A program made the position numbers. DNA of 21,358 nt from Escherichia coli (GTDB taxonomy: Bacteria > Pseudomonadota > Gammaproteobacteria > Enterobacterales > Enterobacteriaceae), in the NCBI RefSeq assembly GCF_003334765.1, contig NZ_QOWT01000048.1, one strand, 5' to 3'. How positions within the stretch are numbered: the first letter of the stretch is position 1; each line of letters opens with the position of its first letter. Positions 9,001-12,000 of the stretch are shown here, one piece after another.

Positions 9001-12000
9001 CGGGCAATATTACATCCTGAAAGTGCAGCAGTTCATGCACACGGTTCGACGGCTAGTCATTGATCTTCATAATTACCTCGCGTAAAAACGGGGTAAGGAC
9101 GCTCATCCAGCGTCATCTCCACAGGTAATAATTCAACGCCAATTCCAGAAGAATTCGTTAGCGGAAGACGCCGTGATATACGCCCTTTGATCAGCCAGAT
9201 CCTGAGCCATTTGAACAGAAGATTATCATTGATATCGTGCTCCCGGGCAATACGGGCAACAGAATCCCTTGGTTGTAAAGCCAGTTTAACCATTTGAAGT
9301 TTAAACTCATTTGAAAAGTAAGCGCCCCGAGAAGTACGTGGCGTAAGGATTATTTTACAGCCGAGAGGTTCCAGGGCAGCAGTTCATGCACACGGTTTGA
9401 CGGCCAGTCATTGATTTTCCTGATCACTTCCAGTGTTAACATAAACCGCCGTATGCGGAGCCGCATGTACGGTGGTGTGAGAGGACGGCGGGAGTTATCC
9501 CTCCTCCTACTCGATCCCGCTCATGCTGGCGTACCCAGACATGCAGAGTCTCCGGTGTACAGCCAATCTTTGGGGCAATGGAACAAATTACCGCCCATTG
9601 TGAGTCATATTCGCCCTGACTTTCCAGAACCATACGAATCGCCCTATGACTGACTTCGGGGGAAAAACGAGTATTTTTAGTCATCCTGTTTACCTCTTTC
9701 TCTGGAAGGTTAGTCTCCAGGATTTCCGGGACGGTTCAGTTTACGTGTTTTTTGGCTGGTTGATACTGTTTTTGTCATGTGAGTCACCTCTGACTGAGAG
9801 TCTACTCACTTAGCCGCATGTCCACTATTGCTGGGTAAAATCAAATCATTAATATCTCTGCATAACGTGCAGGGGATGCTCCACAGCATTAAGTGCATAT
9901 ATTTATACTAAGTTTAGTCACACAGATTTCGATTATTATCATAAACTTATAATTATATATCCCTTAGTTATTAATAGTCAGGTACATTATATATAATGTT
10001 TCCAATAACTGTACATGTCTGCGCCTGTAAGTGTGGCTGAGGATTCTTGTGTTATCATTCAACATGACAACTTTGCACTATTATCTAAAGGAGGCGCTCC
10101 TTAATATCATAGAAAATAGAAGACAGAATTTTGCATTTCTTGTTTTTTTATCTCTTAGCTTTATAGGGATAATTATTACTGACTCTTTGATATACAGTGT
10201 TTCCTTAAAAGCTGAAGAAGAACTAAAAGTTCATAGTGACAAGGTAATATTTGTTAAATTATATCGACCTAAAACGGTAGGATATATAACAGAAAAATTC
10301 ATTACGGTTAGTAAAGTTCTTTCTTTCTCGAAGAACGCATTCCTCTATGTCAGCGATACACCTTTTTCCGGTGAACTATTTTCGGTGAGCGGAATTGACA
10401 AGCTGGGATTGAACACGGAATATTCTGGAGATTTAAATGATAAGTACAATGGCAATGTTGCTATTGTTAATGAATCTAGTCCGTTTTTCAGTAAGAAACA
10501 AATATTTATTAATGGTGTTCCGTTTAAAATTATTGGTGTCAGATTAAACTCAAAAACGGATTTTCTTGACAGCCTTGGATTGAAAGCAAACCAATCAGAT
10601 GAACACATTTTCATTCCACTGGAAACTATGTTTAAAATGAAACTCGATAACAGAGTCAATGCTGTTAAAATCTTTCTTGATAACATAGTAACAAAGAGAG
10701 ATATAAACAACGTAAAGAGAGTTTTATATGACAATGATATAAGAAAATTCGATATTGTCACATCTTTAAACGCCAAGGAAGCTGTGGACAGAGTGTTAGA
10801 GCGGTTTTCATTACTCACTAACTCTGTATACGTGATATTAACTCTGTCTGCGTCCGTGACATGTTTTATTTTATCGAAACGCAGCTTTTATTCGAGACGG
10901 GTAGAGTTAGCATTAAAAATAATCCATGGTACAGAAAAGAAAGAGATTACAGTTCTAATTATCATTGAGTCATTAATAATGCTGAGCGTATGTCTTTTTA
11001 TTTCACTCATCCATGCAGGAGTAATAATGCATATTATTAAGTATTTTTTAGATGTAACAATAAGTATTAGGACAACAATGATTACAATATCACTTGCCAA
11101 TGTCCTATTGGTGTTTATATTTGCAAATATCATTTTCAGTAGGCTGTTTTTCAGCATTAACCCTGTTAATGCGATAAAAGGAAAGATCGAGTGAGACACA
11201 TATTATACTCATTTCTTGCAATAAATGCTTATCTGTTTTCGACACAGACTCTGGCGAAAGACTGTATCATTGATAATTTCTTTCAGAAAAGCATCCAGTT
11301 TAATTCTTATTCTCTTGATATCGAAGAGTTAGATATTAATAAACATAACAATATAAAAACGATGTTACCAGATATAAATATAGGGTTAGGGCAGTATATA
11401 AACAACAATCAATGGTTCTCATCTATTACAGACAGCCATTTTTATTTATCATTATCCTATAATCTTCTATCGGCTTATGAAGCAAAAATGCAGAATAATA
11501 AATTGGATATTGCTAATTATTTAAAATATATTGAAATGCTTAGTGAGAGGAACAACTACATAATTAATTTGTTCTCGGAAATTATTAACTATAAGATAAA
11601 AAAATCTCACCTGATGTTGATGCTCGAGAGATATAGGAAGCTCAATAAAGAATACGAAATTGCAAAGCGTAAAATGTCAATTGGATTAATATCTGCTCTT
11701 GATGTAGAGATGATATATAATATTTTACAAAAAATCAGGTTTGATATTGATGTCCTTGAGGAGGAGGAAAGTTTACTGTCAGATAAAATCTCGAGAGAAT
11801 ATCATGTTCCTGAGAGTGCAATCCCAGACATTACATATCATAAGTTAAAAGAGTGTAAAACAGCGGATTTCTATACATTATTAGCTGAAAACAAAAAACT
11901 CAAGATTAAGGCTGCTGATATAGATAATGATATAAGGAAACTATCTGAGATCCCATCTTTTTATTTATCATTTGGATTAACACCTAAACAAGGAGGTGCA

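Follow-up and report, generated by a model that had tools for sequence, protein, structure and literature searches.

The region examined here lies in a stretch of 21,358 nucleotides of Escherichia coli DNA (contig NZ_QOWT01000048.1 of RefSeq assembly GCF_003334765.1), which we refer to throughout as the window. The window corresponds to a region of a pAA-type enteroaggregative E. coli virulence plasmid (aggR, aap, aar, aatPABCD) and matches other plasmids at 99.3-99.8%, among them those of E. coli 55989 and of O104:H4 strains. For NZ_CP025574, a near-identical plasmid, the Prokaryotic Genome Annotation Pipeline (PGAP) gives the order aggR, aap, an S6-peptidase fragment, aar, an IS630 pseudogene, an S6-peptidase pseudogene, a 'transposase', a partial 'hypothetical protein', an IS3-family pseudogene and aatPABCD. 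Our subject is a direct repeat between the truncated peptidase gene, a sepA-like gene of the SPATE class, and the aat operon, which a first-pass annotation had described from the sequence alone and which we relate below to remnants of insertion sequences (IS) of the IS66 family, here called elements 1 and 2. The features of the segment are as follows.

7296-9023, plus strand: truncated sepA-like SPATE (S6 peptidase) pseudogene, assigned by sepA homology; a PGAP S6 family peptidase pseudogene in NZ_CP025574
9022-9085, minus strand: copy 1 of the repeat, the putative decayed 3' end of an ISSfl3-type tnpC and left part of a mini IS66 relic (homology and translation)
9086-9100, no strand: internal junction of the mini element, 15 nt between tnpC tail and tnpA fragment that are assigned to neither (BLAST boundaries)
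9101-9317, minus strand: fragment of an IS682-type IS66-family tnpA with a helix-turn-helix, about codons 14-85 (homology, profiles and PGAP)
9310-9317, no strand: target octamer TTTGAAAA at the putative insertion point of element 2, the left duplication copy only (comparison with E. coli FDAARGOS_943, L009)
9318-9348, minus strand: right terminal inverted repeat (IRR) and 3' untranslated end of an ISSfl3-like element, starting GTAAGCG, 30/31 identical to L007:3501-3531 of Shigella pINV
9350-9430, minus strand: last 26 codons and stop codon of an ISSfl3-like tnpC (EVIRKINDWPSNRVHELLPWNLSAVK*), the partial 'hypothetical protein' of PGAP; contains copy 2 of the repeat (9373-9430)
9425-9517, plus strand: 3' remnant of a group II intron, domains V-VI (Rfam RF00029 at 9444-9515; BLAST to L008 of E. 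coli M18)
9518-9738, minus strand: left end and 5' part of orfA of an IS3-family element of the IS1203/IS629 type (92-95% identity to IS1203/IS629 annotations; PGAP IS3 pseudogene)

A repeat scan of the region reported a single direct-repeat family, consisting of the pair 9022-9079 and 9373-9430, each 58 nt long, with 50/58 positions identical (86%) and a start-to-start spacing of 351. The longest exact block shared by the copies is 22 nt, and the chance expectation for exact direct repeats of that length in a 21-kb window is about 1.3e-5, which places the pair far above chance. The 44-nt core with three C/T differences that the first-pass annotation had described is present at 9025-9068 and 9376-9419; its first interval and its second start were given correctly, and its second end, 9420, was one base too far. 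The 31-mer GTAAGCGCCCCGAGAAGTACGTGGCGTAAGG, which it had pointed out in the intervening DNA, was located at 9318-9348.

IS66 elements have the organisation tnpA-tnpB-tnpC, TnpC being the DDE transposase. When translated on the minus strand, both copies of the repeat yield the C-terminal tail of TnpC, …EVIxKINDWPSNRVHELLPWN…, and match the tails of ISSfl3 (…EVIEKLNDWPSNQVHELLPWNFSSVK*), of an IS66 fragment adjoining iha (L003; …EVIVKLNDWPSNRVHELLPWNCSTVK*) and of ISEc23 (…LPEWPSNRVDELLPWNVVLTNK*). On account of these translations we assign the repeat to tnpC, the IS66-family transposase gene, of which it is the predicted 3' end, occurring twice on the minus strand. The earlier description of the end of an unidentified element present twice was therefore correct as far as it went, and the element can now be named by type (tnpC 3' end, ISSfl3 type). 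Essentially, the repeat belongs to a known IS terminus with a simple annotation, an outcome that the first-pass annotation had itself listed as counting against its account.

Copy 2 runs in frame to a stop codon at 9350-9352, and its reading frame, EVIRKINDWPSNRVHELLPWNLSAVK*, is identical to the ISSfl3 TnpC tail at 21 of 26 amino acids. Terminal inverted repeats of IS66 elements are 20-30 bp long and start with GTAAGCG (PMC11946415, citing Ross et al. 2021); such a terminus, GTAAGCGCCCCGAG… / GTAAGCGCCCCGAGAAGTACGT…, begins at 9318, and the corresponding repeat next to copy 1 has been lost. Positions 9318 to 9430, the last of which is where the tnpC homology of copy 2 ends, align with the right end of the Shigella pINV ISSfl3 (L007:3501-3613) from the first base of that element onwards; the identity is 91.2%, as it is to ISSfl3 in L009 and to the L003 fragment. 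An NCBIfam search gave no match for the 38-amino-acid open reading frame (ORF) of the TnpC tail or for the IS3-type OrfA fragment; both were named by DNA homology and annotation. From these comparisons, element 2 is a putative second, ISSfl3-like IS66-family element, apparently inserted into the tnpA of element 1 at TTTGAAAA.

Copy 1 is decayed. It reads LREVIMKIND*PSNRVHELLH, that is, the TnpC tail with a TGG codon changed to the stop codon TAG and with a cut at the sepA junction, and it is without the last ~7 tnpC codons. Its identity to ISSfl3 is 82.8%, and 57/58 of its positions (98%) are identical to a chromosomal mini element (L002:5056-5113). By BLAST, the ISSfl3 tnpC homology ends at 9085 and IS682 tnpA homology begins at 9101, and the identical junction is found in L002. 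The tnpA fragment that follows, 9101-9317, is 88.5% identical to the tnpA of IS682 (L004), 79% to that of ISEc23 and 97.7% to the chromosomal mini element. A minus-strand ORF of 78 amino acids at 9057-9293, the 'transposase' WP_000239755.1 of PGAP, matches Pfam HTH_Tnp_1 (E 1e-6) and the NCBIfam IS66 TnpA models NF038385 and NF047595 (E 1e-12 and 1e-10), with scores below the full-length cut-off because the ORF is a fragment. A helix-turn-helix fragment thus does exist where an orfA-like one had been reported, but it belongs to an IS66-family TnpA and not to an IS3-type OrfA.

Taken together, positions 9022-9317 are 97.6% identical to L002:5056-5351, which lies within a relic of 476 bp (L002:5001-5476) on the chromosome of E. 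coli S9 (NZ_CP107122, 530859-531334) carrying the 'transposase' WP_000239754.1. In order, this relic consists of an ISSfl3-type right inverted repeat with 119 nt of tnpC tail, 15 nt, IS682-type tnpA codons ~85 to 1, and a left inverted repeat of the IS682/ISEc23 type (GTATGCGTAAAC…, also written GTA(T)GCGTAAAC…). It directly adjoins a full ISEc23 in L002, and no target duplication surrounds it. Approximately 1338 of 5426 complete E. coli genomes match 9022-9435 at 80% coverage or more, with about 94% identity in a listing spread over these matches; L002 is the chromosomal relic that we inspected in detail. We conclude that element 1 is the apparent interior of a decayed, internally deleted, hybrid 'mini' IS66 relic, in which an ISSfl3-type tnpC tail is joined to an IS682-type tnpA.

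The relation between the 2 elements is best seen at their common border. Relic-type sequence ends at 9317 (…CTCATTTGAAAA), at about codon 14 of tnpA, and the IS terminus follows directly. We constructed a composite query from the ISSfl3 left end and the relic, in which the predicted lost junction reads TTTGAAAA and then TGACCTGCGGGG…, and found that this predicted left-end junction matched exactly one genome, E. coli FDAARGOS_943 (NZ_CP065615, L009). In that genome, a complete ISSfl3 with tnpA, tnpB and tnpC (1818-4571) occupies the identical nucleotide of an IS682-type tnpA, and TTTGAAAA stands on both of its flanks as an 8-bp duplication (1810-1817 and 4572-4579). IS66 elements make direct target duplications of 8 bp (PMC11946415; PMC3281130, Table 2). 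These observations lend strong support to 9317/9318 being a true transposition junction. An IS dimer or circle junction was also considered for this border and rejected, as the IRR abuts tnpA codon 14 and not a left inverted repeat.

The same border bears on the alternative raised by the first-pass annotation, that the repeat arose by tandem duplication in the event that truncated sepA; in the form considered here, a segment of about 351 bp was duplicated and the copies have diverged since. The arrangement does resemble a truncated head-to-tail duplication, in that the window is a circular permutation of the mini element, positions 56-351 followed by positions 1-113. However, the copies are 86% identical to each other, a difference of 14%, against 97.7% for the surroundings compared with the relic and at least 99.5% for the surroundings among pAA plasmids. 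The relic is matched at 98% by copy 1 but at 87.6% by copy 2, whose identity to ISSfl3 is 91%; with such different closest relatives the 2 copies would have different ancestries. Finally, the boundary that precedes copy 2 is exactly an IS terminus, and it recurs in L009 with a full ISSfl3 and an 8-bp duplication. We consider a tandem duplication to be very improbable.

In our view, then, the repeat is very probably explained by nested, deleted remnants of the IS66 family, that is, by 2 broken elements, one of them inside the other. Several observations nevertheless weigh against this account. The target duplication survives on one side only in the window, the opposite end of element 2 having apparently been deleted, and it is for this reason that we take insertion at TTTGAAAA from the comparison with L009. 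None of the full-length elements found in our searches exceeded 92% identity to copy 2, whose exact parent IS is accordingly not named here. The sequence of copy 2 breaks off 113 nt from its end, and the mini element has its own deletion point at 119 nt; the source of copy 2 could thus be another mini element in place of a full-length IS. Nor does the account cover how the hybrid mini element arose: its right end is of the ISSfl3 type and its left end of the IS682 type, and L002 shows no target duplication around it.

The host and insert identities to L009 (89.4% and 91.2%, respectively) form a pattern of co-divergence, and sharing of site and orientation is improbable unless there is a target preference. 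Both points would fit a nest that descends from, or was recombined from, a single ancient ISSfl3-in-IS682 nest shared with the L009 lineage, with no fresh insertion on the plasmid. Against such a descent, the chromosomal mini element is 97.7% identical to the host part of the window and yet has no insert at TTTGAAAA. Moreover, in plasmid NZ_CP062880 the same octamer of an IS682-type tnpA is occupied by ISCro1, a different member of the family, in the opposite orientation (L011:3517-3524). We therefore regard common descent from an ancient nest as unlikely, though not to the degree of the tandem duplication.

The ISCro1 in the opposite orientation also suggests that the site is a hot spot for independent hits. 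A further ISCro1 end is found in NZ_CP062880 26 nt away, at ATTTGAAG (L012:3502-3527), and the ISSfl3 of Shigella pINV adjoins TTTTGAAG (L007:3490-3500), close to where an ISCro1-like tnpA has its 5' end. An exact-pattern scan of contigs with the ISSfl3-type terminus gave two matches only, both in short contigs of metagenome-assembled genomes that were uninformative on the insertion flanks. We suggest tentatively, as an idea that is possible but still doubtful, that TTTGAAAA, at about codon 13/14 of IS682-type tnpA, is a preferred target for other IS66-family elements. If true, this would imply a sequence or structure preference (~ATTTGAAR) or self-targeting in the IS66 family, in which, to our knowledge, target choice is poorly characterised. 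This hint of recurrent insertion of IS66-family elements within another member of the family is the sole point of wider interest in the locus.

The outer borders of the segment were defined by similar comparisons. From 8400 to 9023 the window is 96.3% identical to Shigella sepA; as had been claimed for the SPATE homology, the match stops where copy 1 starts, in this case at 9023, corresponding to approximately nt 1729 of the 4092-nt gene. Relic homology starts at 9022, and the crossover dinucleotide AG lies 55 bp inside the right end of the relic. Since the crossover falls inside both the relic and sepA, a simple IS insertion does not account for it; sepA is, by this evidence, a gene apparently truncated by a deletion that took its 3' part together with the relic terminus.

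On the other side of element 2, the intron remnant matches Rfam RF00029 at 9444-9515 with 47.2 bits against a gathering score of 40, and has the domain V/VI structure; domains I-IV and the reverse transcriptase ORF are absent. With the 3' end of an intact, ltrA-carrying intron of E. coli M18 (L008) the remnant shares 95.7% identity, over 9425-9516 by local BLAST and over 9425-9517 in the best database hits. The full group II intron of the window (~16150-18020) was tried as the reference and rejected: it is another intron, with an identity of just 88% over domain V, and the left edge of the remnant could not be placed with it. The E. coli M18 intron was used in its stead. The tnpC and intron homologies overlap at 9425-9430, as TTC or as 5/6 positions of CACTTC, inside both partners. 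The left end of the IS1203/IS629-type element abuts the intron remnant (~9517) and forms the right border of the debris, upstream of aatP.

Three junctions, other than that at 9317/9318, accordingly remain: sepA|mini (9021-9023), mini-internal (9086-9100) and tnpC|intron (9425-9430). All 3 lie within both partners and show microhomology of 2-6 nt, which is the form that deletions would leave. We propose that element 2 would have entered element 1 by transposition, at TTTGAAAA of the tnpA fragment, and that deletions would have followed through illegitimate recombination at these microhomologies. Through one such deletion, sepA may have lost its 3' 58% and element 1 its outer 55 bp; another, ending at 9425-9430, may have removed almost all of element 2 and the last ~125 bp of the relic, with most of the neighbouring group II intron, seated in the IS1203/IS629-like element, also being deleted. 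The order of these events and the mechanism of deletion are as we would reconstruct them from the homology boundaries, the identities and the intact nested relative.

Some further observations concern introns, IS ends and duplicated genes elsewhere in the window. The intron remnant and the IS orfA lie on opposite strands. The left end of the IS has a second, near-identical counterpart at the window start (region 1-165; positions 1-93 are 99% identical to 9574-9666), and a second domain-VI-like remnant of the same intron type is present at 874-909 (94% over 36 nt). The full intron noted above, with Rfam domains D1-D4 at 16228-16514, an ltrA ORF at 16560-17912 and domain V at ~17936, is held by a unit at 16048-19344 that also carries a PD-(D/E)XK nuclease gene and a recombinase gene; the unit is bounded by inverted repeats of 36 bp (16048-16083 and 19309-19344) which are 92% complementary and resemble Tn3-family ends. 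At 21090-21270, on the plus strand, the left end (GTAAGCGCTCCGTCTGTGACGTCTTG…) and the 5' part of tnpA of an IS66-family element, 82% identical to ISSfl3, run off the end of the window in the orientation opposite to copy 2. Downstream of aatD, at 15210-15548 on the minus strand, the 5' third of aggR recurs as an incomplete, decayed copy with several stop codons; this copy is 84% identical over 253 nt to 3412-3663 (minus strand) within the intact aggR at 2849-3682. Lastly, amid IS debris near the window start, 729-853 on the minus strand gives a full-length match (140.5 bits) to the Rfam family STnc490, an Hfq-binding small RNA.

The repeat lies ~600 bp upstream of aatP and is conserved among pAA plasmids, and in principle it might be a functional cis element, either a regulatory or a recombination site, for the expression of aat or aggR. 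Only position and conservation speak for such a role. The segment 8600-10000 is found in 45 complete E. coli records at 80% or more of its length, the matches listed being pAA-type plasmids with at least 99.5% identity; among these plasmids the repeat is conserved no better than the region as a whole. Both copies are accounted for, base for base, as tnpC coding sequence, the premature stop codon of copy 1 occurs in the chromosomal relic as well, and the repeat is without a match to an Rfam family. We find a cis-acting function hardly credible, and 9022-9430 would appear to be inert mobile-element debris between the sepA pseudogene and the aat operon, with no function indicated.

For annotation, the 'hypothetical protein' at 9350-9430 can be named a predicted TnpC tail and the 'transposase' at 9057-9293 a predicted TnpA fragment. 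As for sepA, its truncation in this plasmid lineage is documented as falling inside an IS relic, and four different mobile-element remnants are seen to be stacked upstream of aatP.

The nested remnants belong to a known kind, and their parts are already partly annotated in RefSeq; a literature search returned general features of the IS66 family and no description of this locus or of the biology of ISSfl3. Protein homology to the family is provided by the TnpA profile matches and the TnpC tail alignment. The three-gene organisation is not present: what the segment holds is 72 codons of tnpA and two tails of TnpC, of 26 and ~21 codons, with no tnpB and no DDE domain among the remnants of elements 1 and 2. 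The remnants are, as far as their homologies tell, apparent derivatives of IS66 family members and not an element capable of transposing.

With ISSfl3, which is known from Shigella flexneri pINV and some E. coli, element 2 shares the right terminus GTAAGCGCCCCGAGAAGTACGT…, the stop position and 21 of 26 amino acids of the TnpC tail. It differs in that the window has 113 of ~2734 bp, tnpA, tnpB, the DDE domain and the left end being missing; at 9% divergence, element 2 is a relative of ISSfl3 and not ISSfl3 itself. With regard to the IS682/ISEc23 group, the window tnpA, limited to codons ~14-85, is fused to an ISSfl3-type tnpC tail and not to its own tnpB and tnpC. The 476-bp relic and 9022-9317 agree in their internal junction and in the TGG-to-TAG change that puts a stop codon into the tnpC tail, but the relic keeps both termini and is uninterrupted at TTTGAAAA, whereas the window copy, shortened by 55 bp on one side and by ~125 bp on the opposite side, has gained a second IS end. 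The nest of E. coli FDAARGOS_943 agrees with that of the window in insertion nucleotide, orientation and octamer, TTTGAAAA. Yet its insert is complete, with both inverted repeats, and its host, cut short by IS600, is IS682 proper (96.8% identical); this host is without the tnpC-tail copy 1, and for that reason the direct repeat is confined to the window member of the pair.
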